A model generated the notes under the pieces. It worked only from the letters and a program-made list of their open reading frames with translations. It was not told the DNA's origin and did not search any database. From Escherichia phage phiWec187, in the sequence record LC739536.1: a stretch of 64,000 nt of DNA, one strand, 5' to 3'. Both the position numbers and the translations under genes were made by a program. The number at the start of each line of letters is the position of its first letter. Within the stretch, counting starts at the first letter, position 1. This document shows, piece after piece, positions 16,751 to 47,586 of the stretch.

Positions 16751-19700
16751 TCAATGACAACTAGCCCATGAGTTACCAACATCGTAACCAGCAGTGAGAG
16801 GTACATTAAGATTGTAATACTCACCAGCTTTATTAACAGCGATAGATGCTAATTCTCCAGCACGACTGTAGGCTGTAAACCAACCACCTTTCGGAGATTC
16901 ATGTACGTTAGCCCAAATCTTGCCAGTACGTTTCTCTTCCTCTTCTTTCCAGGTATTAACTTTATCCAAACATTCTTTATCAATTTTCTTTTGTTCTTCT
17001 GGATCATCAACTTGAGTCCAACCTAAAGATTCTTTAGAGAACCATTTAAAATGCACCAGATCACGAGTTACTTCAAGCTGTGCTTCATCGTGATATGCAA
17101 TCATTTGTTGAACGAATGACTTATTTTTCCAGTCATCAACAAAAAAGTCAACAGCTAATCCTTCTTCTTCGATAAGATCGTCGTAGATAACCATTGCTCT
17201 TTTTGCACAAATAACACCACCACTCTGGAACAGAGAGTTAAGTATTGCGTGTGCAGATCGTGTAGGTACTTTTCTACCATCAATACCGAGAATGTATTTC
17301 TTACCTGTTTTAACCCAAAAATCATGCAGACGTTCTTTAAGAAGCGCAAGAGGTTTTGCAGCTTCCCAGAAAGCATCGTATACAAGCTGTCCTGTATACA
17401 TATCACTACCTATAGTTTTTGCTACTTTTGCAGCTTGAGCGCCGTACGTGCAGTTACCTGTCAACGTGATAAAACCATTCTGACGCATAACAAAAGATTC
17501 ATTCTTGGTTGAGATACAGAATACATCTGTTACTCGTGAAAAAGCTCTTGTCAACCTCTGTCCTGAAATAGTTTGTCCGTTATTGATTGCCAACGTTAAC
17601 ATGCCATCTTTTTGAACAGAACCATACGCAATATTACCTGTCATATTGATAGCCAAAGAAACAGCGTCGCTAATCTTACCTTTCTTTTGACGGATAACAA
17701 GACTGCCGTTTGGACGCTTATGACCATCTGCCATCCAGAATGCCTCTAAGAATGCTTCCAACACAGCTTGACCTTGATTAGCAATTAATGTAGACCAGTC
17801 CACTTCGTGCTTATTTTGACCCACTTCAACGCCACATTTAGTCAAAAATTCCCTAAACTGACTCTTATTAGGACGTAATGAATGCATCGTTCCAGATACA
17901 TACTCGTCAAATGTGAAGATATCTCCCACAGCCTCACGTGCTTCTTCTAAGAATTTTTTCTCATCTTGATCTACCGTGACTGTAATACCCATTACTTTAT
18001 TTCTGGCTTTGCCAGACCACTTATAGTAGCCATCCGAAAGAAGCCAGCCTAAGAAACGACCTTCTTCCACTGTTAGAGTAGACACCACACCAGATCGCCC
18101 TGCTGCAATTATGTTTGACTCCGAGTTTAAATCCTCTGTAGATCTACGCTCCACTTGCATATACTTAACATTGTTACCATCTGATCGCATAGTTTTTCTC
18201 TGTGCGTTAATCCACATATGATCGTTAGTAACTTCTACTTTGAACCACTTGTTACCGAGAGAGACAACTTCTGCATCGTTATAGTCCCACAGCTTAAGAA
18301 TAGGGGTATATTCGTAAAGAGCGGTGTGAGTATTATAAGATAAAACTTCATCCCCTACAAAAAGATCTTTACGTTTCTTCCAACCCGTTCTTGTTAACAC
18401 TTCCGTATTATCTACAGGTACACAACCGTATTTAACGCTCTTAGCAGGACCACGTTCAAACTTACGTCCAATAATATCAGTAATATGTTTTGCCATCATA
18501 GTATGCACATCGTTTGGTTTTTCTAACAGAAGTGCATTACAGTAAGCATGATCAGGATTATCATATCTCCACGTATAATGCGACTCAATCTTCGCCTCTA
18601 ATGAATCAAAGTCATAACCAATCTGGAAGTATTTAGGAACCTCTACACCAAATAAGTTACGCATTTCATATCCGTACAGAGATGTTACACGTGGGATATT
18701 TGCTACTAACCTATGTTTCATACGAGATGTAGCTGCATCACACGTTGCAGCAGGAGTTGGTATACGACCATCAGCCCTTACTGCTGCCAGATAACCTTTA
18801 TCGTAATCCTCTTCTTCTTCCCAATCAGCACCACCCCCTAGAATAGAGTTCCTACGGTGTTTATACGTAAGATACTGCACAACCTGCGTAGCATAAGGAA
18901 ACTTTTCACCTAGTGCTTCCAAGTTAGGACAAATATCTTTCTCTTGCCCTTTTGTAAAGGAAGGGTTAGTAAGCACTTTAACACCACGACCTTTAGCTTT
19001 AGCAATACGATCTCTTAGTTTCCATTCCAAAGTTTCTGGTGTGCACTCCAGATGATCACATCTGTCCTGGCAGAAATTAGATGCTAATGTTTGATCAACA
19101 TAGTCACGAATGGCTTTCTCCATTTGTGCTTCATCTTTCTTAATCTTAGTGCCAGATTTAAGAGTGATATCTTTATCTTTATATTCAGATGGACTCCAAC
19201 CTAAACCAACTAACCAATTTTTAATATGTGTTGTGTCGTCTAAAGTAGCAGGTACTGTAGGATCACAAATAGGTTCTTCTGCTGGAATAGGTAGTTTAAA
19301 CTCTTTACCTAATGCAAATAACCACCAACCATCTTCTTTTTGTACAAGTTCACCAGAATGTTTCTCTGCAAACTTTATCATGTTACTTGAAGGTTCACCA
19401 TTCTTTTTAAACTGTAGTTTAGGTGGAATGAATGATTTCAAATAACCTTTAGTAGCAGGTTTAGGAGGTAGCACAGGTTCTGCCTCTAAACGACATGCTT
19501 CCATTCGAGCATCCAGATCACGAATATTATCTTCTGCTTGTTTCATGTTGAAAGCAAAGCCACGGTGCTCTTGACGTGTAATAATATCAGCTACACGTTG
19601 TTCTAAGTTAAATGGTTCAGACCACTTATTATAATCACCCCACTCTTCCATCAAATAACGGAACACTGCGGTGTTAGCTTTGTTATCGTAAATACAGTAA

Positions 19701-20299
19701 TACAGCATATCTGCTGCAAATGTTCTAAATCTTTCAGTTTCAGGGATGTTTTTTCTGAAATCAATTTTAACATCCCCTCCAGCTTTCTTAGATAACTCTG
19801 CCAGACTATGACCACCGAAGCGATCAGGGTTTAGTGTCTTACTTAAGATCATAGTATCACAAATTTCAATGTTACTATTACCCCAAGTATTGTACTTAAT
19901 ACTGTAGTTGAGTTTAAAAAATAATTTAATTGCCAGTAAGTCGAAGTTAATGATGTTGTGTCCAACTACTTTGGTAATTTTATAGTTTGAATTACCTTTA
20001 AATTTACCTGTTCCGTTTACAAAATCAGGAAAATCTTTAAGAGGGAAATGGGTATATTCTAAATGCTCATATTCCTCCAGTCGGTATTCATACTTTCCGT
20101 CAGTCTCAACATACGGACGACCATCGAAAAGATATTTATCACCATCATGGAAAGCAATAATCTCTCCAGTATCATGACTTTCGCACACAATACAGTGCAT
20201 TGCAAAACTATCTTTTAAACGATATGGACTTGCCAAGTAATCTACACTTTCGTCATTAAGCAAGTTGTTACTTTCAATGTCGAAAGTAAAAGCTCCCAT
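16751..20299 (-). CDS. family A DNA polymerase with N-terminal 3'-5' exonuclease, interrupted by an intein
   Basis: Motif B region RGPAKSVKYG...CTYGAQAAK split by a 324-aa insert; motif C AYHDEAQLE; N-terminal exonuclease-like FDIESN. Confidence 0.85.
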   Translation of the reverse strand: MGAFTFDIESNNLLNDESVDYLASPYRLKDSFAMHCIVCESHDTGEIIAFHDGDKYLFDGRPYVETDGKYEYRLEEYEHLEYTHFPLKDFPDFVNGTGKFKGNSNYKITKVVGHNIINFDLLAIKLFFKLNYSIKYNTWGNSNIEICDTMILSKTLNPDRFGGHSLAELSKKAGGDVKIDFRKNIPETERFRTFAADMLYYCIYDNKANTAVFRYLMEEWGDYNKWSEPFNLEQRVADIITRQEHRGFAFNMKQAEDNIRDLDARMEACRLEAEPVLPPKPATKGYLKSFIPPKLQFKKNGEPSSNMIKFAEKHSGELVQKEDGWWLFALGKEFKLPIPAEEPICDPTVPATLDDTTHIKNWLVGLGWSPSEYKDKDITLKSGTKIKKDEAQMEKAIRDYVDQTLASNFCQDRCDHLECTPETLEWKLRDRIAKAKGRGVKVLTNPSFTKGQEKDICPNLEALGEKFPYATQVVQYLTYKHRRNSILGGGADWEEEEDYDKGYLAAVRADGRIPTPAATCDAATSRMKHRLVANIPRVTSLYGYEMRNLFGVEVPKYFQIGYDFDSLEAKIESHYTWRYDNPDHAYCNALLLEKPNDVHTMMAKHITDIIGRKFERGPAKSVKYGCVPVDNTEVLTRTGWKKRKDLFVGDEVLSYNTHTALYEYTPILKLWDYNDAEVVSLGNKWFKVEVTNDHMWINAQRKTMRSDGNNVKYMQVERRSTEDLNSESNIIAAGRSGVVSTLTVEEGRFLGWLLSDGYYKWSGKARNKVMGITVTVDQDEKKFLEEAREAVGDIFTFDEYVSGTMHSLRPNKSQFREFLTKCGVEVGQNKHEVDWSTLIANQGQAVLEAFLEAFWMADGHKRPNGSLVIRQKKGKISDAVSLAINMTGNIAYGSVQKDGMLTLAINNGQTISGQRLTRAFSRVTDVFCISTKNESFVMRQNGFITLTGNCTYGAQAAKVAKTIGSDMYTGQLVYDAFWEAAKPLALLKERLHDFWVKTGKKYILGIDGRKVPTRSAHAILNSLFQSGGVICAKRAMVIYDDLIEEEGLAVDFFVDDWKNKSFVQQMIAYHDEAQLEVTRDLVHFKWFSKESLGWTQVDDPEEQKKIDKECLDKVNTWKEEEEKRTGKIWANVHESPKGGWFTAYSRAGELASIAVNKAGEYYNLNVPLTAGYDVGNSWASCH
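17453..18424 (-). mobile_element. intein with LAGLIDADG-type homing endonuclease inside DNA polymerase motif B
   Basis: Begins CVPVDNTEVL (intein block A), ends ...LTGN with +1 Cys; internal GWLLSDGYY and LEAFWMADGH resemble the two LAGLIDADG helices; removal restores K-x3-YG-x2-YG. Confidence 0.75.
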
Positions 20300-38962: not shown

Positions 38963-39433
38963 TTAGTCAGATTCCCAAATGTTGTCTTTCTTAATCCACA
39001 TTCGTTGATTATCTGAACCTCTATAACGTTTCGTTGTTGGTTGATTCATATCATACTTACCATCTATCACTATGTCAACCAGTTTTTTAATTTTTTCTGG
39101 AATTTCCTCAAAAAGATATCCTGTATATAAGACAATATCTTTTTTGTTTCCAAAACAATCTCTTACCTTCTCAAGAACATACTCTACAGTGTCAATGTTC
39201 TCTTTGTCAAGAGGTTCACCACCTAAAACTGTTAATCCTTTAATGAAAGGTCGAGATAAATCTTTCAAGATAAGATCTAATGTTTCAGTAGTGAACTCTT
39301 GTCCGTGGTTATACGACCAGGCTTTCTGGTTAAAGCAGCCACGGCAACCGTGGCTACAACCGCTCACCCACAAAGAGCATCTTACACCGTCACCGTTGAG
39401 CATGTCAACAGGTTCATATCCGGCGTAATTCAA
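38963..39433 (-). CDS. nrdG: anaerobic ribonucleotide reductase activating protein (radical SAM)
   Basis: CSLWVSGCSHGCRGC Cys cluster near the N-terminus; 156 aa; immediately downstream of nrdD. Confidence 0.8.
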   Translation of the reverse strand: MNYAGYEPVDMLNGDGVRCSLWVSGCSHGCRGCFNQKAWSYNHGQEFTTETLDLILKDLSRPFIKGLTVLGGEPLDKENIDTVEYVLEKVRDCFGNKKDIVLYTGYLFEEIPEKIKKLVDIVIDGKYDMNQPTTKRYRGSDNQRMWIKKDNIWESD

Positions 39434-40371
39434 AAATGTTTCTCCCTTTCTAGTACCTCTTGCATTTTACCTTTATTATAGGGGCGAGAGTTAGGGGCAG
39501 AAAGGTATCCTGACACTCTTCTGATCACAGATATGGATTCTTCTTCATGATTGCCACAACTTGGACACTCGAAGCCTTTAGCCGTTGCTTTAAATTCACC
39601 ATGAAAACCACATTTGAAACACTGATCTACAGGTTGGTTCACACCAAAATAAGGAATTTTGTTGTAGGCATAATCTACAAGAGTTTCCAGTGCTTGCAAG
39701 TTATTTTTAAGGTTTGGTGTTTCTACATAACCTATGTTCCCACCATTACTGATTTGTGCAAAACCTTCCTCATAATCCCACTTTTGGAACGGGGTAGTGT
39801 GCATCCATACAGGTTGATGGAAAGAGTTTGTCAAGTAGTCACGATCAATAGAACCAGGATAGCGATCATTTAATGCTTTGGCAAATTTATAGCACAAGGA
39901 TTCTGCTGGTGTTCCATACAAACTAAAAGCTAAACCAGAACGTTCTTTAAATGTGCCACAGATATCCTTCATATATTGAAGGATGTTTTTACCCATTGCT
40001 TTTGTATTGGTGTTACCTGGGTATAAAATCTCCATAGCTTCTGCTAAACCTACATAACCGATACTAATAGAGGCATAACCACCTTCGAATAGTTTACCAA
40101 TCTCTTCATTAGCTTCTAGTCGAGCTAAAGCCCCTTCCATAAACAATGTAGGGTTTTGAGATGCTTTGGTATGTCTAATACGGTTAACACGTAGCATATG
40201 TGCCTTATACGCCATCTCCATATGTTGTTCCAACAGTTCAGTAAATAAGATGCCCTTTTCACGGGACTCTGCTGCAATGATAGGTAAGTTTAAAGAAACC
40301 ACGCCTAAGTTGAAACGACCATCATATTTTTCACCTTGCTCTGTTGCGTAGTATGACAAGAAACTTCTACA
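39430..40371 (-). CDS. nrdD: anaerobic ribonucleoside-triphosphate reductase, exon 2
   Basis: Begins CRSFL; contains C-terminal zinc ribbon (CFKCGFHGEF...CPSCGN) and glycyl-radical motif RRVSGYL. Confidence 0.8.
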   Translation of the reverse strand, partial: CRSFLSYYATEQGEKYDGRFNLGVVSLNLPIIAAESREKGILFTELLEQHMEMAYKAHMLRVNRIRHTKASQNPTLFMEGALARLEANEEIGKLFEGGYASISIGYVGLAEAMEILYPGNTNTKAMGKNILQYMKDICGTFKERSGLAFSLYGTPAESLCYKFAKALNDRYPGSIDRDYLTNSFHQPVWMHTTPFQKWDYEEGFAQISNGGNIGYVETPNLKNNLQALETLVDYAYNKIPYFGVNQPVDQCFKCGFHGEFKATAKGFECPSCGNHEEESISVIRRVSGYLSAPNSRPYNKGKMQEVLEREKHF

Positions 40372-41140
40372 CATTATGTTCAAAGTGGCTCGCAAGGCCA
40401 CTCCCGCACCATTACGTGCTGCTGCATGTCACCATGCAGATCAGACTATATCTTCATGCTTAAAGCATGTCTACCATTTGGGGTGTCATAGGCTTACACC
40501 CTACGCTGCTACATTCATCACAGCTAGTCGTTAGGCATTTCGTAACAGAACTCATAATCATAATTATTTGGTGCTCCTCGCTTTAAGATTGCAGATATTC
40601 TTTTTCTGTCCAACCCTAAAGCGTCAGCACAACATCTCAGACTTTTAAAGTAAAAAACTTCACCGGTAGCCTTATGAGTAGCTTTTACACTGTGACACCT
40701 TGTGTAGAAAGCATAACAGTTATTATCGTAACCCTCTTGCGTGTTGTCTGGACAAGATCCCCACTCAAGATTGTATACACTATTGTCTTTCCTATTGTCA
40801 CCTTTATGCTTCACATAAGGTAAATTGTCTGGATTGGGTAAAAACGCTTCAGCTACAAGTCTGTGCACCCGAAAGCAAACAGTTTTCTTGTTTTTACGTA
40901 TTCTGACAAGTTGGTATCCTGTGTTTATTTCTTCCCACGAGCGAAGGATTCTTTCATCCTTATACCTGGTACAATAAACATTTCCAAGCTCGTCAATTTC
41001 ATACCCTTCAAAATCACGAATTTGTTTTCTCATATCAGTACCCCCTTCTTCTGTGTTGGGAGTTCTGTTACGTTTAGCACGGGATTGTCTCGTTGAGAGT
41101 TCCCCCGTTTAGGCAGATTTTACATGAGCAGTTATAGTTT
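40372..41140 (-). mobile_element. group I intron (IA2-like) interrupting nrdD
   Basis: 769 nt; 5' exon ends CAUGGGU, which can pair with intron GCUCAUG (P1, U.G at the splice site); intron core AAACGGGGGAACUCUCAACGAGACAAUCCCGUGCUAAA closely resembles the T4 td intron core; intron ends in G; splicing rejoins ...TSMG|CRSFL... Confidence 0.8.
40524..41033 (-). CDS. intron-encoded HNH homing endonuclease
   Basis: 169-aa ORF inside the intron; VHRLVAEAF...HKGDNRKDNSVYNLEW is an HNH signature. Confidence 0.75.
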   Translation of the reverse strand: MRKQIRDFEGYEIDELGNVYCTRYKDERILRSWEEINTGYQLVRIRKNKKTVCFRVHRLVAEAFLPNPDNLPYVKHKGDNRKDNSVYNLEWGSCPDNTQEGYDNNCYAFYTRCHSVKATHKATGEVFYFKSLRCCADALGLDRKRISAILKRGAPNNYDYEFCYEMPND

Positions 41141-41998
41141 ACCCATGCTTGTGACGCGACCATCTGAAGATCCTGTAACTTCTTTGTTTAAAGGTACAGA
41201 GATAAAATCAGGATAAATGCGTTCAGCACAACACTCCATTGCCAGTTGCTTCAAATCATAGTTTGGATCGCCAGCTTTCATGTTAACACCATCTTCCAAG
41301 AAGAAGATAACTTTAGGAAACACAGGAGTTACCCTATCTTTTCCTAATCCTTGTTTGTGCACCATTAGGTAGTTTTTAGTGATCATTCTACCAAAAGCAG
41401 AGGTATCCAAGCCTAAACTAATTGTTATAAAAGGTGACTGACCATTTACACTCATTAGGGTGTTCACCTGGTAGATTAAAGTTTGCATTGCATCATAAAC
41501 CTGTTTATCTACCATACGCATAGCAATATCATAATCGCCAACATCGGCGTATATTTTATTAAAACTTGCTTTAACGTATTGACTAAGCCCAGTATCAATA
41601 TGTGCACAAGTTTGTCCACCATATTGGCTAGAAGCTACTGCTTGAATAATTTGAGTTAGGACAGTAGTTGCTACACCGATAGATTTTGGTTTTTCAATAT
41701 GTGCATTACCAATACGGAAACCGTTCTCAAGCATATCTTGGTAATTTACCAGGCAACAATTAGTTAGAGGTGAGAGTAAATAATCTAAATCGTGAATGTG
41801 ACCATACCCACTTTTATGCCATTCTGCCAGATCTTCCGGTAAAATATGGGTCATTGCCATGTGCTTGCTTAGGATACCTGCTAGTAAGTCTCGGTGAGTA
41901 TTAACAATCATTGCAGGTTTGTTTGCATTTTCACGAGTAAATTCTTCGGATGTTTGTTCGAGGAATCCGATTACATCCTCATATAGTTTTTGGGTCAT
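41141..41998 (-). CDS. nrdD: anaerobic ribonucleoside-triphosphate reductase, exon 1
   Basis: 286 codons ending ...GRVTSMG at the 5' splice site; the listed ORF reads 2 codons into the intron before a stop. Confidence 0.8.
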
Positions 41999-43055: not shown

Positions 43056-43490
43056 TTAGTTTAAAATTTCTTTTGCAATGGTAGAAGCAAGTTTTCCATC
43101 ATATTGATTCGGATACTCTGCTTTAAGGTGTTTCATCATATCTGGCATTTTCTTGCCTGTCAAGGCAAATTCTTCGGCAATAGCTCGAAGATCATCTTCA
43201 GATAGCATTTCTGGTAAATATTTCTCCAGAGTGGTGATATCACGCATAGCTCTCTCACATTTGCTAAGGGAAGCATTAACTTTCTTAAGCGAGTCTAGTT
43301 CCTCTTTAGCGTGTGCAATACCAATCTTAACAATGTTAATCATAATATCGTCTTCTGATTTGTTTAGATTTGCCTTTTGAGTACGAGCAAGGTCAAACTC
43401 ACCAATAATATTAGTTAACAAAGCAAAAGCACCCTTATCGGTTGTACGTGCTAAGATACGATCTGCTTTCATTTGTGTCACAATAGACAT
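43056..43490 (-). CDS. GatB/YqeY-domain protein
   Basis: 144 aa; C-terminal LRAIAEEFALTGKKMPDMMKHLKAEYPNQYDGKLASTIAKEIL resembles the YqeY C-terminal domain. Confidence 0.45.
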   Translation of the reverse strand: MSIVTQMKADRILARTTDKGAFALLTNIIGEFDLARTQKANLNKSEDDIMINIVKIGIAHAKEELDSLKKVNASLSKCERAMRDITTLEKYLPEMLSEDDLRAIAEEFALTGKKMPDMMKHLKAEYPNQYDGKLASTIAKEILN

Positions 43491-43502
43491 TCTATTCTCC
43501 TC

Positions 43503-44075
43503 TTATTTGCTAATGCTTTGAGTCTTGTTTATAACACGGTTTATTGCCAGTGAAGCCCTAGGCTCCGCAATACCTGTTGCATAGATATAAGGATGACCTC
43601 TTGGAGACTCCCTCATACCGAATGAACCTAATTCTAAACCATATTCATCCTCTACGTCAACCCCAATATTAGTGGGTACTAAATATGTTTTAACTCCATA
43701 ATAAGTAGAGAAGAAACAGCGCATAGCGTTAGCATACTCTTCAATTGTAGCATCAGGGTAGAACTCAATCAACTCCAATTTCAAGAAAATATTAAAATGG
43801 GTATCATCTAAATTTTCTTCTGTACGGTAACATGGCGTTAGTGCCATATACGGATTACCTGCTGCAAATTCAAAACCATCCTTCTCCATTTGCAGGAAAG
43901 ATTGTTCTGCACTAGCTACATAGTATTTACCGTTAGGATGCCCTAATGGGCGATCCTCTTTATTTTCTGGTAGTGTGTACGCTAGTATATCAGCATCCAC
44001 GAGATATGGAACTTCTAACATTTGTGCAAATCGACCATAGTAATCAATAGCTTGAGCTATTACTGCAACATTCAT
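43503..44075 (-). CDS. class II aminoacyl-tRNA-synthetase-like catalytic core fragment
   Basis: ALTPCYRTEE...HFNIFLKLELIEFY resembles class II motif 2 (fRxE...EF..lE); only 190 aa. Confidence 0.35.
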   Translation of the reverse strand: MNVAVIAQAIDYYGRFAQMLEVPYLVDADILAYTLPENKEDRPLGHPNGKYYVASAEQSFLQMEKDGFEFAAGNPYMALTPCYRTEENLDDTHFNIFLKLELIEFYPDATIEEYANAMRCFFSTYYGVKTYLVPTNIGVDVEDEYGLELGSFGMRESPRGHPYIYATGIAEPRASLAINRVINKTQSISK

Positions 44076-44323
44076 GATCGACCTCCATTGCGGAATGCAC
44101 GTTTAGTAATGTTTGACATAGTGATCAAATCTTGAAGCGTCATATCAGGAAAATGCTGTTCAAGAACACCTTCAACAGCGCCTACAATATCTGATAACTC
44201 AATAAGTTGCATCAGCTTGCAGTCTTGATCAATAGCATCTTGAAGTTCATAAAGCTCTTCTTGAATCTTAGCAACAGAACCATATTCCTCTTTGCTAATC
44301 TCCTTCAAATGATACCCTGCCAC
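44072..44323 (-). CDS. MazG-like nucleotide pyrophosphohydrolase (small)
   Basis: IQEELYELQDAI...LIELSDIVGA fits the MazG EExxEL...ELxD pattern. Confidence 0.45.
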   Translation of the reverse strand: MAGYHLKEISKEEYGSVAKIQEELYELQDAIDQDCKLMQLIELSDIVGAVEGVLEQHFPDMTLQDLITMSNITKRAFRNGGRS

Positions 44324-44333
44324 TTTAACCCCC

Positions 44334-47108
44334 TTAGTTTACCAGTTTATTTATGTCTGGTAAAAGATTTATTTCACCTAAGAAATCACCTTCACCTTCC
44401 TCTAGCCAACTCTCATATGCTTGTGCATGATTATAGTTACCATCAAAAGAATCTGCAACAAATTTTTCTACAGTTTTTCGAGATGTGTCAGCGCCAAATA
44501 CACCAAGTTTAATACCATTGATAGGTAAAGTGGTGCTTGTGGGTACTTTCTCTGTTGCAACACGGTTGATATCTATAATCTCCTGTACGGTTGTGTTCCA
44601 TTGTAAGCATTTAACACAACGGGTGTGCGCTACATACAGTAGGTTTCGCTCTGCCTCTTCTAGTCCTACCCATTCACCAGTCTTTTTATCATAATTGGAA
44701 GGAAAATCATTAGCAACAATAACCTGATCCCACTCCAAACCTTTAGATTTGTGTGCTGTAGTCAATGTGACTTTTGCTGTAGGAGAATTTCTATGCGTTC
44801 TAAGTGTATGTGCTATAGTGTTTGCCTTACCAGAAACTACAATGTTTAACAAACGTTTAGCATCTGGATCAGCCTCTGCACACTCAACAAATTCATCCCA
44901 GTCTGCATAAGGTAATACAGTTTCATGTTTTACTTTCTCAATATCTCCTCTCCGAAGAGCATTAACACTATCTACCATAGAGATAAAATCCCTGGTATCT
45001 ACGTTAATAATAATTTCTTCCCCGTCTGCAATACGATCCATTGCCTCCATAAGCAAGGTTAAATTCTTGCGAAAGATGATAGTGTAAGGTTTTGTATAGT
45101 CTACAACATCTGATTTGTAGCTACCTACTACAGTATCAAAGCCTTTACCAACCAAAGGATGACGCAAAGGTTCTTTATCGCTTAAAATCATATTGGCAAT
45201 GTTTGCCACTTTGGGGCCAAAACGGAAGCAAGCAGTTAATGGAAGTTCTGCCCCATACTTAGCTGTTTCAATCATCATATTAGAGCTACCTCTAAATTGA
45301 TAAATGCAGTTGTGGCTAAGAATTTCATTGCCAAAGAAGTTAGCAGTATCCTCTACTTCAATATCATAATAGATACCCTCACTATCTACAATGTCCACAA
45401 TCTCTTCTGCCGTTACAGTATCACCATCTTTTACCAACACAGACATGCCTTTAAACAAACCCGCTGCCGGAATTAAGTTATATTTGGCACTGTTCACAGA
45501 GGACATGCATTCTTTTAAAGATGCAAACGGAACTATTTCAAGGATCTTTTGTGCAAAACTCAATGCTTCACGATAAGAATTGAAATATTTACGTACACGG
45601 TAACGACCTTCCAATTTAGCAGCACTTACGCTTACACCTGCTTTAATCAGTGAAGAATAGATCGGCATTTCACTTTCTGTCCACTCAAAACTAACTTGTG
45701 TTCCTTTACAACCTTGTGCTCGCAAAGTCACTGTTAGCATTTTTCTTTCATCTACTGCACAATTGATGCTGTGCCAGTGTGGATAAGCAAAATGATAATC
45801 TTTATCCTCTAAAAGTTTAAAACCATTTTGTCCGAATTGTTCAAAGATGTTATTGATCTTTTCTTGATTAATGCCGCGTGAACTTGCTTCAAATACACAA
45901 GTAGGCATGCCATATTGTAAACTGTAAGCCATTTCTTTTTCCATAGCAGCTTCACGGTTTTCAACAATATCCAACACCCATAATTTCTGTGCTTTTTCAG
46001 AACGTGTACGTTGCCCCAGTTTAGAAAAACCTTCTTTATCATCGAATTTGTTAGTGATCCCTACTCGGAAACCTAAATCTTTCCTCCACATTAGGTATAC
46101 CACCATCTGATCATCTTTCAGAACATAGGATGAAGCCCAAATACGATGGTTATGTGTCATATCTAAAGTTTTACCTGTGGCAGTAATAATATTCCTACCT
46201 TTTGTACGTGTAGATAAAGTCTTATTTGTTACTTTTCTAAATGTAATTTTACCATTAGAATAAGACTCTACCTTATCACCGATTTGTAGGTCTTTCATTG
46301 TAACCTGACCATTCTCGGTATTAAGTACCGTGTTTTCCGACACACATTGGAATTCATCGCCCACTACCACAATTTGTTTTGCAGATTTAGCATTTCGCAG
46401 AATAGACAAGAATGCAGGGTTAACATCCTGGAATTCATCACCAAAAATAATGTCATAACCAAGATCAGCACCTGATAATTCAAACAATTTTACATAGGTG
46501 TCATGCGTCATCAAAGTATCTGTGTTAGGATCGATGCGCTCTCGCCACAATTGTTTTGCATACTTAACCACTTCTGTAATTAGTTTATGTTCGTTAATAC
46601 CTTTTCTTTTAATATCTGCAAGATGTACACCAGGAAAATGTTTACGGCTGATAAAAGGATCATCCGAAAATTCAAACTTACCTACGGTTTGTTTGATCAT
46701 TAAACCAATCATAGCACGAGTTAACAGTGTTTTCCCTCGTTTATCAATAAGATTATTAATCTTAAATTTCTTTGCTATCTCGCTACCTGTACCTGCAACG
46801 TTAACATACTGTCCTTCTGGTCGTGACAGTTTTGCACGTAAACGATGATCCAGGAATTGATAGCAAATAGAATGCAATGTACGGCATTCTACATTTAGTG
46901 GCATCTTACGTCGTGCTTCTTCTGCCATGCTTTTATTGAAAGCTAAGTAAAGAATGCGATCTTCTGTACTGTTAGCCAGCAAATAAAGTGTTGACGTTTT
47001 GCCTGATCCAGATTTAGCTTGGATAGTTAAAAAGCGATGGTCTGGAAAAGCCTCCTTAATAGCTGTTTGCTCTTCTGTTGGAGTGAAGCTCAACTCTTTC
47101 TTAGCCAT
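44334..47108 (-). CDS. SF1 (UvrD/Dda-like) DNA helicase interrupted by an intein
   Basis: Walker A AKSGSGKT; motif II IIFGDEFQD; motif III VVVGDEFQ|CIYQFRGSS split by a 346-aa insert; start set at ATG 47108 (MAKKEL). Confidence 0.75.
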   Translation of the reverse strand: MAKKELSFTPTEEQTAIKEAFPDHRFLTIQAKSGSGKTSTLYLLANSTEDRILYLAFNKSMAEEARRKMPLNVECRTLHSICYQFLDHRLRAKLSRPEGQYVNVAGTGSEIAKKFKINNLIDKRGKTLLTRAMIGLMIKQTVGKFEFSDDPFISRKHFPGVHLADIKRKGINEHKLITEVVKYAKQLWRERIDPNTDTLMTHDTYVKLFELSGADLGYDIIFGDEFQDVNPAFLSILRNAKSAKQIVVVGDEFQCVSENTVLNTENGQVTMKDLQIGDKVESYSNGKITFRKVTNKTLSTRTKGRNIITATGKTLDMTHNHRIWASSYVLKDDQMVVYLMWRKDLGFRVGITNKFDDKEGFSKLGQRTRSEKAQKLWVLDIVENREAAMEKEMAYSLQYGMPTCVFEASSRGINQEKINNIFEQFGQNGFKLLEDKDYHFAYPHWHSINCAVDERKMLTVTLRAQGCKGTQVSFEWTESEMPIYSSLIKAGVSVSAAKLEGRYRVRKYFNSYREALSFAQKILEIVPFASLKECMSSVNSAKYNLIPAAGLFKGMSVLVKDGDTVTAEEIVDIVDSEGIYYDIEVEDTANFFGNEILSHNCIYQFRGSSNMMIETAKYGAELPLTACFRFGPKVANIANMILSDKEPLRHPLVGKGFDTVVGSYKSDVVDYTKPYTIIFRKNLTLLMEAMDRIADGEEIIINVDTRDFISMVDSVNALRRGDIEKVKHETVLPYADWDEFVECAEADPDAKRLLNIVVSGKANTIAHTLRTHRNSPTAKVTLTTAHKSKGLEWDQVIVANDFPSNYDKKTGEWVGLEEAERNLLYVAHTRCVKCLQWNTTVQEIIDINRVATEKVPTSTTLPINGIKLGVFGADTSRKTVEKFVADSFDGNYNHAQAYESWLEEGEGDFLGEINLLPDINKLVN
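45309..46346 (-). mobile_element. intein in helicase motif III
   Basis: Starts CVSENTVL (block A), ends ...EILSHN followed by Cys; 346 aa implies an embedded endonuclease of unclear type. Confidence 0.7.
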
Positions 47109-47109
47109 T

Positions 47110-47586
47110 TCAACCTCTCTTAATTTGTTTAACAAGCATAGGAACAAAATCTCGTTTTAAAATTTGTTCAATAATATGATCAGGTAGCTGTTGGAAATTA
47201 TAATTAAAAGCTACTGTCTCACCTTTAGGTGTTTCTACCCGCACATATAACATGTTACGAAGTTTATCCACTTGTGCTGTGTATTCTAAACCATGTAATT
47301 GATGTAATGCAAACATCAAATCATCAGTTTCAGTTTGGAATCTATCCCTTCCCTGCATCAAGGACAAGGAAAAAGGTAGATTTTCCCTAAGAGCCACCTT
47401 CTTAGGCACTAGTGAAGGGAAATACTCCCCAATAACTTCCTGTGTAAGCTGAATACACTCTTTTTCAAGCTGGTTTTGTTCCTTGAGTTCACAAACACTC
47501 TTTTGTAAAGTGTTAACCTCTTTTTGCAAAGCTGCTAGTTGAGCACTTAACTTTCTTTTTTGATTACGACCAAAACGTTTAGACAT
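47110..47586 (-). CDS. hypothetical protein
   Basis: 158-aa ORF; stop 1 nt before the helicase start. Confidence 0.4.
   Translation of the reverse strand: MSKRFGRNQKRKLSAQLAALQKEVNTLQKSVCELKEQNQLEKECIQLTQEVIGEYFPSLVPKKVALRENLPFSLSLMQGRDRFQTETDDLMFALHQLHGLEYTAQVDKLRNMLYVRVETPKGETVAFNYNFQQLPDHIIEQILKRDFVPMLVKQIKRG

Follow-up and report, generated by a model that had tools for sequence, protein, structure and literature searches.

What is the segment that interrupts a helicase gene of Escherichia phage phiWec187, and what does it carry? The window analysed here is a stretch of 64,000 nucleotides (nt) of sequence record LC739536.1. Its helicase region is 99% identical to those of Salmonella phage UAB_1 and phage VEcB and 98% identical to that of phi92, and the window belongs to a phi92-like myophage of the genus Justusliebigvirus. 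An earlier note, made from the letters alone, had described the segment as an intein in motif III of a superfamily 1 (SF1) helicase. From its boundaries, its distribution among related phages, and the module between its two splicing lobes, we conclude that the segment is probably an active, mobile class-1 intein in motif III of a UvrD-like helicase, with a nuclease module that most likely derives from GIY-YIG enzymes.

The helicase open reading frame (ORF) runs on the minus strand from a TTG at 47147 to 44334, and its 2814 nt were used as the query. Translation likely starts at the ATG at 47106-47108, behind GAGAGG, which is also the start annotated in phages phi92, PaulScherrer, and EC.P2; their records give identical limits for the coding sequence. 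The exteins matched UvrD-helicase, UvrD_C, and AAA_19 in Pfam and PHROG 1967 ("DNA helicase," E = 4e-162), and the predicted spliced product is a UvrD-like SF1 helicase of 578 amino acids (aa). The precursor and its splicing parts are as follows.

44334 to 47108, minus strand: helicase precursor coding sequence, 924 aa from the ATG, stop codon TAA at 44334-44336 (ORF list and translation)
46347 to 47108, minus strand: N-extein, aa 1-254, ending in ...IVVVGDEFQ, the first half of motif III
45309 to 46346, minus strand: predicted class-1 intein, 346 aa (1038 nt), Cys1 to His345-Asn346, with exact 1038-bp presence/absence
44334 to 45308, minus strand: C-extein, Cys+1 (45306-45308) followed by IYQFRGSS, the second half of motif III, and on to the stop
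46116 to 46346, minus strand: N-terminal Hint lobe, intein aa 1-77 (Pfam Hint and Hint_2 on aa 1-74, invariant columns, strands of the model)
45309 to 45476, minus strand: C-terminal Hint lobe, intein aa 291-346 (TIGR01443 on aa 327-346, PDB intein matches on aa ~275-346)

Reverse-complement translation of the intein interval gave exactly 346 aa, from CVSENTVL to EILSHN, between ...IVVVGDEFQ and CIYQFRGSS..., so the observation in the earlier note was correct to the base; what it omitted was the strand. The residues of a class-1 intein are in place: the block A nucleophile Cys1 (46344-46346), block B as T64-H65-N66-H67, which fits T-x-x-H (H67, 46146-46148, is invariant), D328 of block F (45363-45365), H345-N346 of block G (45309-45314), and Cys as the +1 nucleophile, a position held by Ser or Cys in homologues. 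In an alignment of 34 homologues with about 40% mutual identity, the internal class-1 residues were invariant or nearly so. The invariance of Cys1 carries little weight, because these homologues had been picked to start with Cys and end with Asn. The NCBIfam model intein_Cterm (TIGR01443) matched above its cutoff (20.0 bits against 15.6), and Pfam Intein_splicing (PF14890) matched the insert at E = 2.3e-8 with 34.4 bits, 1.4 bits short of its gathering cutoff of 35.8; the same model matched all 34 homologues at E ≤ 1 (best, 8e-12). A PDB search with the 34-sequence profile found the gp41-1 intein at E = 2e-14, and the AlphaFold2 model of the intein (predicted local distance difference test [pLDDT] = 92.7, predicted template modeling score [pTM] = 0.89) has the Hint fold.

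Could the segment instead be an integral, lineage-specific domain of the helicase, or an assembly artefact? The shortfall against PF14890 leans that way, as does the phi92 reference record, which notes merely "2 discontinuous domains." The candidate was nevertheless rejected, and we give it almost no credence, given the complete splicing signature and the exact absence of 1038 bp from sister phages. The earlier note had named related helicases as the comparison that could overturn an intein; those of alia, 92CQ, ESCO8, KKE7M, and a Phapecoctavirus lack the segment precisely and read ...GDE(F/Y)Q-SIYQFRG..., and the objection fails because these same-genus and Phapecoctavirus helicases are precisely without it. 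Removal of the insert likewise regenerates SF1 motif III, GDE(F/Y)Q-(S/C)IYQFRG. The placement in motif III with canonical class-1 boundaries is thus borne out by the splicing residues and by the precisely empty relatives, and as far as sequence can tell, a class-1 intein in motif III of a UvrD-type helicase is confirmed.

To what extent does the element behave as a mobile one? The full-length 2814-nt query was present in 37 of 55 phage records at ≥95% identity. Among the matches listed, seven shorter ones span 1776 bp, exactly 2814 minus 1038, and in the four of these that were aligned base by base the gap is exact. The allele alignment held five occupied alleles (the window, PaulScherrer, phi92, EC.P2, and OZ035770), four empty ones (alia, 92CQ, ESCO8, and KKE7M), and one outgroup, Phapecoctavirus nieznany, in which the same 1038 bp are exactly absent. 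Occupied and empty alleles differ by 22 fixed differences, all of them within -27 to +50 of the junction, in two tracts.

46347 to 46373, minus strand: upstream co-inherited extein tract, -27 to -1, with 6 of the 22 fixed differences
45258 to 45308, minus strand: downstream co-inherited extein tract, 0 to +50, with 16 of the 22 fixed differences

At the 22 positions the empty alleles share the state of the outgroup, which marks the empty state as ancestral. Empty alleles encode Ser (AGC) at +1 and occupied ones Cys (TGC), and the downstream tract alters the helicase itself (S>C, Q>S, K>I, S>A, and T>K). Outside the tract, occupied and empty backbones are interleaved, and the presence of the intein is independent of the helicase backbone: the occupied phi92 allele is nearest to the empty ESCO8 allele (10 differences in 1652 nt), EC.P2 to empty KKE7M (13 differences), and the window allele to empty 92CQ (19 differences), and the species Justusliebigvirus alia includes isolates of both kinds. 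Because fixed differences occur only within -27 to +50 while the backbones interleave, the pattern is, judged from these alleles, what repeated homing with short co-conversion classically leaves behind. The population data show that about 27 bp of extein upstream of the intein and about 50 bp downstream of it always accompany the intein when it is copied; the Ser-to-Cys change at +1 is part of this sequence.

What, then, lies between the Hint lobes? About 210 residues are inserted there, and they fall into three parts.

45888 to 46115, minus strand: candidate GIY-YIG-like subdomain, intein aa 78-153, topology beta1-beta2-alpha1-beta3-alpha2
45747 to 45887, minus strand: helical linker, intein aa 154-200, with the conserved motif RG(L/I)NQ..I..IF..FG.NG..LL
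45477 to 45746, minus strand: second alpha/beta subdomain, intein aa 201-290, beta-beta-alpha-beta-alpha-beta

A separate model of residues 74-292 (pLDDT = 90.9) returned the same succession of a beta-beta-alpha-beta-alpha subdomain, a helical linker, and a beta-beta-alpha-beta-alpha-beta subdomain. Across the 34-member alignment, 16 residues of the module are invariant (Y84, M86, G92, R94, G96, R113, E117, W123, A134, E138, S142, L143, P148, G172, G175, and L179). Those in the first subdomain include Y84 (46095-46097), R94 (46065-46067), G96, R113 (46008-46010), E117, and E138 (45933-45935); in the linker, G172, G175, and L179 are joined by the nearly invariant R157. The second subdomain gave weak fold matches to eIF1/SUI1-like domains and is presumed to be the DNA-binding part. 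Among the five occupied alleles, omega (Nei-Gojobori) was ~0.09 for residues 74-292, 0.07 for the Hint parts, and 0.05 for the extein, and third codon positions accounted for 43 of 56 polymorphic sites. No indels were found in any of the 37 copies. The earlier note had guessed at an endonuclease that was "divergent or degenerate": the first adjective holds, and the second does not, because the module combines an omega of ~0.09 with 16 invariant residues and a confident fold. A decaying endonuclease was rejected on these grounds and on the lack of indels.

The insert as a whole is under purifying selection nearly equal to that on the helicase, and it interrupts a catalytic motif, which recalls the "panic button" proposal of Novikova et al. 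(PMC4760082). Both observations would suit a domesticated intein that controls the helicase through conditional splicing, a role suggested for some replisome inteins, with the module kept for the phage's benefit. We regard domestication as quite improbable: a third of otherwise near-identical phages lack the intein, its presence does not follow the helicase backbone, and foreign flanks travel along with it, which is the behaviour of a selfish element and not of a fixed regulator.

Which kind of nuclease might the module be? No LAGLIDADG or HNH motif had been visible by eye, and profile searches agreed: neither an LAGLIDADG nor an HNH endonuclease gave a profile match or a convincing fold match in this protein and 33 homologues, and both candidates were rejected. 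PF01541 and related models (T5orf172 and MUG113) were absent from the 25 most-matched of 28 families found across the 34 members at E ≤ 1. Structure searches pointed elsewhere. With Foldseek against viral models, at least six proteins labelled GIY-YIG or MUG113 stood in the top 50 (probability up to 0.96), together with several labelled only homing endonuclease or NUMOD, and SUI1/eIF1-like proteins matched the second subdomain. Two fold-search programs on two libraries both enriched for GIY-YIG proteins, with low fold scores.

Profile-profile comparison with hhalign was negative against a shallow GIY-YIG alignment built on Escherichia coli YhbQ (Neff 1.9, P = 0.28) and against a shallow 10-sequence I-TevI alignment (P = 0.59), and its global mode gave nonsense output. 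Against a diverse 14-sequence alignment of I-TevI-like endonucleases, assembled from tblastn matches, it was weakly positive (score = 19.0, P = 0.006, HH probability 6%); none of 80 column-shuffled controls reached this score (maximum, 16.6), and the reversed template scored 11.3. This alignment pairs R94-V-G96 with I-TevI Y17-V-G19 and E138, in the E-K-E of alpha2, with the metal-binding E75 of I-TevI (E-R-E). It stops short of beta1, which carries the invariant Y84 in V-Y-L. The second motif, Tyr-x-Gly ("YIG") on beta2, is not present as such: the site reads R94-V-G96, invariant, with Gly kept and Arg in place of Tyr. The invariant R113 starts alpha1, with E117 four residues on; the HH alignment matched R113 to a different Arg across a variable loop. 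Because of the fold-search matches and the weak profile-profile alignment, we read the first subdomain as GIY-YIG-like with Arg for the second Tyr, a reading for which the evidence from models and alignments is weak but consistent and by which membership in the superfamily is not proven.

From the residues and the fold, the following mechanism can be proposed. The 924-aa precursor would splice itself through an N-S acyl shift at Cys1, transfer to Cys+1, cyclisation of Asn346, and an S-N shift, joining ...VGDEFQ to CIYQFRG... and freeing the 346-aa intein. The freed intein, or the precursor, would then cut, close to the motif III codons, the empty helicase alleles of relatives infecting the same cell. 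The cutting agent would be the middle module, neither LAGLIDADG nor HNH, whose nuclease part most likely came from a GIY-YIG enzyme (residues Y84 / R94-x-G96 / R113 / E138, with Arg for the second Tyr). To this part are joined the helical linker and the SUI1-like alpha/beta subdomain, which would supply DNA recognition.

Several points weigh against this account. Splicing, cleavage, and homing are all deduced from sequences and models, and selection for resistance to cutting, in place of co-conversion, could explain part of the flanking tract. The middle module was unmatched in Pfam, PHROG, and PADLOC (all 34 members) and in NCBIfam (this protein), and a PDB sequence search with the middle-module profile returned 0 matches at E ≤ 10. 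Such a lack of profile matches in any library, the low fold scores, an HH probability of only 6% beside two negative HH tests, and the missing second Tyr could all mean that the intein is real and mobile while its module is not GIY-YIG-derived at all. The module would then be a nuclease of new fold or a mere DNA-binding or scaffold module, and the intein would spread via ordinary phage recombination or another nuclease acting in trans. We consider this version unlikely, though a serious one. Two fold-search programs and two libraries converge on GIY-YIG proteins, and the HH alignment, which outscores all 80 shuffles, brings the expected motif residues together. An enzyme explains invariant Tyr, Arg, and Glu better than a scaffold does, and a sharp, short, insert-linked tract is the product of a site-specific break. 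Free-standing copies of the element, moreover, persist beside helicase genes.

How widely is the element distributed, and in what forms? Searched with the middle module, a word-indexed homologue search returned a single match, and an exhaustive HMMER search was required. Run with the intein over 1.84 billion representatives, the latter matched 1137 proteins at E ≤ 1e-3 and 124 at E ≤ 1e-30. A search by the pattern method with a 6-sequence alignment, which found 5 bacterial and 11 viral loci, was not used for distribution. The middle module is present in nearly all full-length HMMER matches. Most family members are UvrD-like helicases with the intein at the same site, xxGDxxQ|C...(S/T)HN|(S/C)IYxFRG. 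Two further helicase sites occur, one in the DExQ box (...VDE|C...SHN|CQDLN) and one reading ...AHN|C...SHN|SKQIP; the proteins concerned include P0003-P0008, P0061, P0068, P0072, P0074, and P0081. Some giant proteins (1800-2500 aa) carry two to four copies of the intein, several with a truncated middle or C-terminal part. Two BFVD proteins, A0A8S5TZY8 (782 aa, labelled adenine-specific DNA methyltransferase, from an uncultured myovirus) and A0A8S5V111 (a 789-aa siphovirus helicase), contain a module related to the middle one (probability 1.0, with 25% identity over 129 columns), and inteins in other host genes may therefore carry it as well.

Five relatives (P0001, P0053, P0055, P0062, and P0070) stand as ORFs of their own, 302-350 aa long. 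Each begins with Met and has neither the terminal His-Asn nor a +1 nucleophile, while the Hint scaffold and the nuclease-like module are kept; P0001 and P0053, the two that were read by eye, retain the Y, R-x-G, R, and E residues. The free-standing ORFs lie at the following positions in their contigs.

L004, 510 to 1418: free-standing ORF
L011, 4001 to 5002: free-standing ORF
L012, 2087 to 3088: free-standing ORF
L013, 1943 to 2929: free-standing ORF
L015, 3001 to 4014: free-standing ORF
L016, 3001 to 4053: free-standing ORF

They sit between a 4-bp overlap and 48 bp downstream of an uninterrupted UvrD-like helicase gene of 483-499 aa; on one short contig the ORF follows only the 3′ end of the helicase gene, and one ORF lies in a 163-kb phage-like contig. 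In five contigs such copies, which lack splicing residues, directly follow an intact helicase gene. Two more free-standing copies (P0096 and P0123) are on contigs too short to show a helicase. By analogy with HO, which came from VDE, or with the T4 seg genes, the arrangement is what would be expected of a homing nuclease gone from its intein. That such copies persist beside intact helicase genes argues that the module keeps the element alive.

Together, these observations lead to a broader proposal, to which we give about even chances: (i) the element belongs to a large undescribed intein class (over 1100 cluster representatives) with a culturable coliphage member; (ii) its in-frame, GIY-YIG-derived nuclease with an Arg-"YIG" motif, combined with a SUI1-like DNA-binding domain, is a third type of in-frame intein nuclease after LAGLIDADG and HNH; (iii) the class targets at least three motifs of UvrD-like helicases; and (iv) it repeatedly became a free-standing homing gene of Hint plus nuclease just downstream of intact helicase genes.

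What else does the window hold? No further copy of the middle module was found in it. The earlier note had counted three replication genes with selfish elements, and the other two hold up: a polymerase intein is annotated in PaulScherrer, and nrdD is split around an HNH-like ORF with a sub-threshold group I intron match.

16751 to 20299, minus strand: family-A DNA polymerase ORF, 1182 aa, weakly matched by Hint models (aa ~617-707) and faintly by LAGLIDADG_3 (aa 847-871)
39430 to 41998, minus strand: nrdD (anaerobic ribonucleotide reductase) region, split into 288 aa (41132-41998) and 323 aa (39430-40401)

The polymerase orthologue of PaulScherrer is annotated as intein containing, with a 245-aa intein, and its coding sequence is 78 codons shorter than the window ORF; nrdD in that phage is one coding sequence of 609 aa. 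Between the nrdD parts lies a 169-aa ORF (40524-41033) with weak HNH_3 and I-HmuI NUMOD-like matches. The group I intron match to Rfam (40422-40529) reached 39.2 bits against a gathering threshold of 50 (E = 8e-8 in a 3.2-kb search), and a scan of the whole window against Rfam at the gathering threshold found nothing. Directly downstream of the helicase gene, at 43056-44323 on the minus strand, are small genes labelled in sister phages as MazG-like pyrophosphohydrolase fold and putative tRNA-synthetase-like proteins. In five records named "Campylobacter phage" (MG065639, MG065645, MG065656, MG065689, and one more; host Campylobacter jejuni), the helicase gene is 98.4% identical to that of E. 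coli phi92-like phages; with genomes equal in size to those phages, these records look like mislabelling or contamination.

How much of this was on record? The same intein, in the same gene and at the same site in DNA that is 98-99% identical, is annotated in PaulScherrer (MZ501100.1, bas60_0082), JohannJBalmer (MZ501084.1), and vB_EcoM_ZYD (PQ110661.1) as "intein-containing UvrD/Rep family helicase precursor" with mat_peptide features; according to the BASEL collection paper (Maffei et al. 2021, PMC8594841), comparative annotation served to place inteins. These records make the intein one codon longer (1041 nt) and are silent on an endonuclease, the polymorphism, and the flanks. Most GenBank records of the genus, the phi92 reference included, mark no intein and in practice misannotate the gene, under the labels "DNA helicase," "DEAD/DEAH box helicase," or "hypothetical protein." Because the intein is ordinary and already annotated, the headline of the earlier note adds little; the interest lies in the cargo. 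No description of the middle module was found in the literature searched, which is incomplete, so that an earlier description is possible; within that literature, the module is the undescribed part. Reviews and surveys recognize only LAGLIDADG and HNH as in-frame intein endonucleases, and here a large family has a different conserved module under purifying selection with a GIY-YIG-like look. The free-standing relatives beside helicase genes would be a second natural example, after HO, of an intein becoming an independent endonuclease gene. Because these E. coli phages grow readily and occur in nature both with the insert and without it, simple crosses can directly test whether the intein splices, how specifically it cuts, and whether it homes.

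How does the element compare with known systems? It resembles the 16 inteins of bacterial UvrD/PcrA-family helicases listed by Novikova et al. (2016), which are likewise of class 1 and interrupt P-loop NTPase motifs of an SF1 repair helicase; in our homologue set, the present family occupies GDxxQ|SIYxFRG in hundreds of UvrD-like proteins. The mini-inteins gp41-1 and Npu DnaB and the hedgehog Hint domain (PDB 6riz/6qaz, 4o1r, and 1at0) have no inserted nuclease, in contrast to the ~210 residues here. With GIY-YIG enzymes (I-TevI, T4 Seg, UvrC, SLX1, and PD-T4-3) the module would share a beta-beta-alpha-beta-alpha core, judging by fold search, and a candidate motif pattern Tyr ... x-V-G ... Arg ... 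Glu, and with GIY-YIG homing endonucleases the two-part layout of a catalytic domain and a separate, presumed DNA-binding part. It departs from them in the Arg that replaces the second Tyr, a 16-residue loop before the Arg, the lack of a PF01541 match and of a NUMOD or zinc-finger DNA-binding tail, and its position in frame within an intein. GIY-YIG enzymes were not known in inteins to Dunin-Horkawicz et al. (2006, PMC1564403) or Dassa et al. (2009, PMC2677866), and a 2025 survey of actinophages found LAGLIDADG and HNH as the sole in-frame intein nucleases. PI-SceI (the VMA1 intein) and HO, which originated from an intein (PMC3384342), likewise form a family in which free-standing proteins keep Hint and nuclease with the splicing residues lost. 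They use LAGLIDADG, however, whereas the free-standing copies here adjoin their presumed target gene in phage-like contigs, more in the manner of T4 seg/mob. The fractured genes of Dassa et al. likewise combine Hint domains with a GIY-YIG-type homing nuclease in phage replication genes; there, a separate GIY-YIG or Vsr-like nuclease gene lies between the halves of a split intein, whereas here the nuclease-like module is a contiguous, in-frame domain of an unsplit one.

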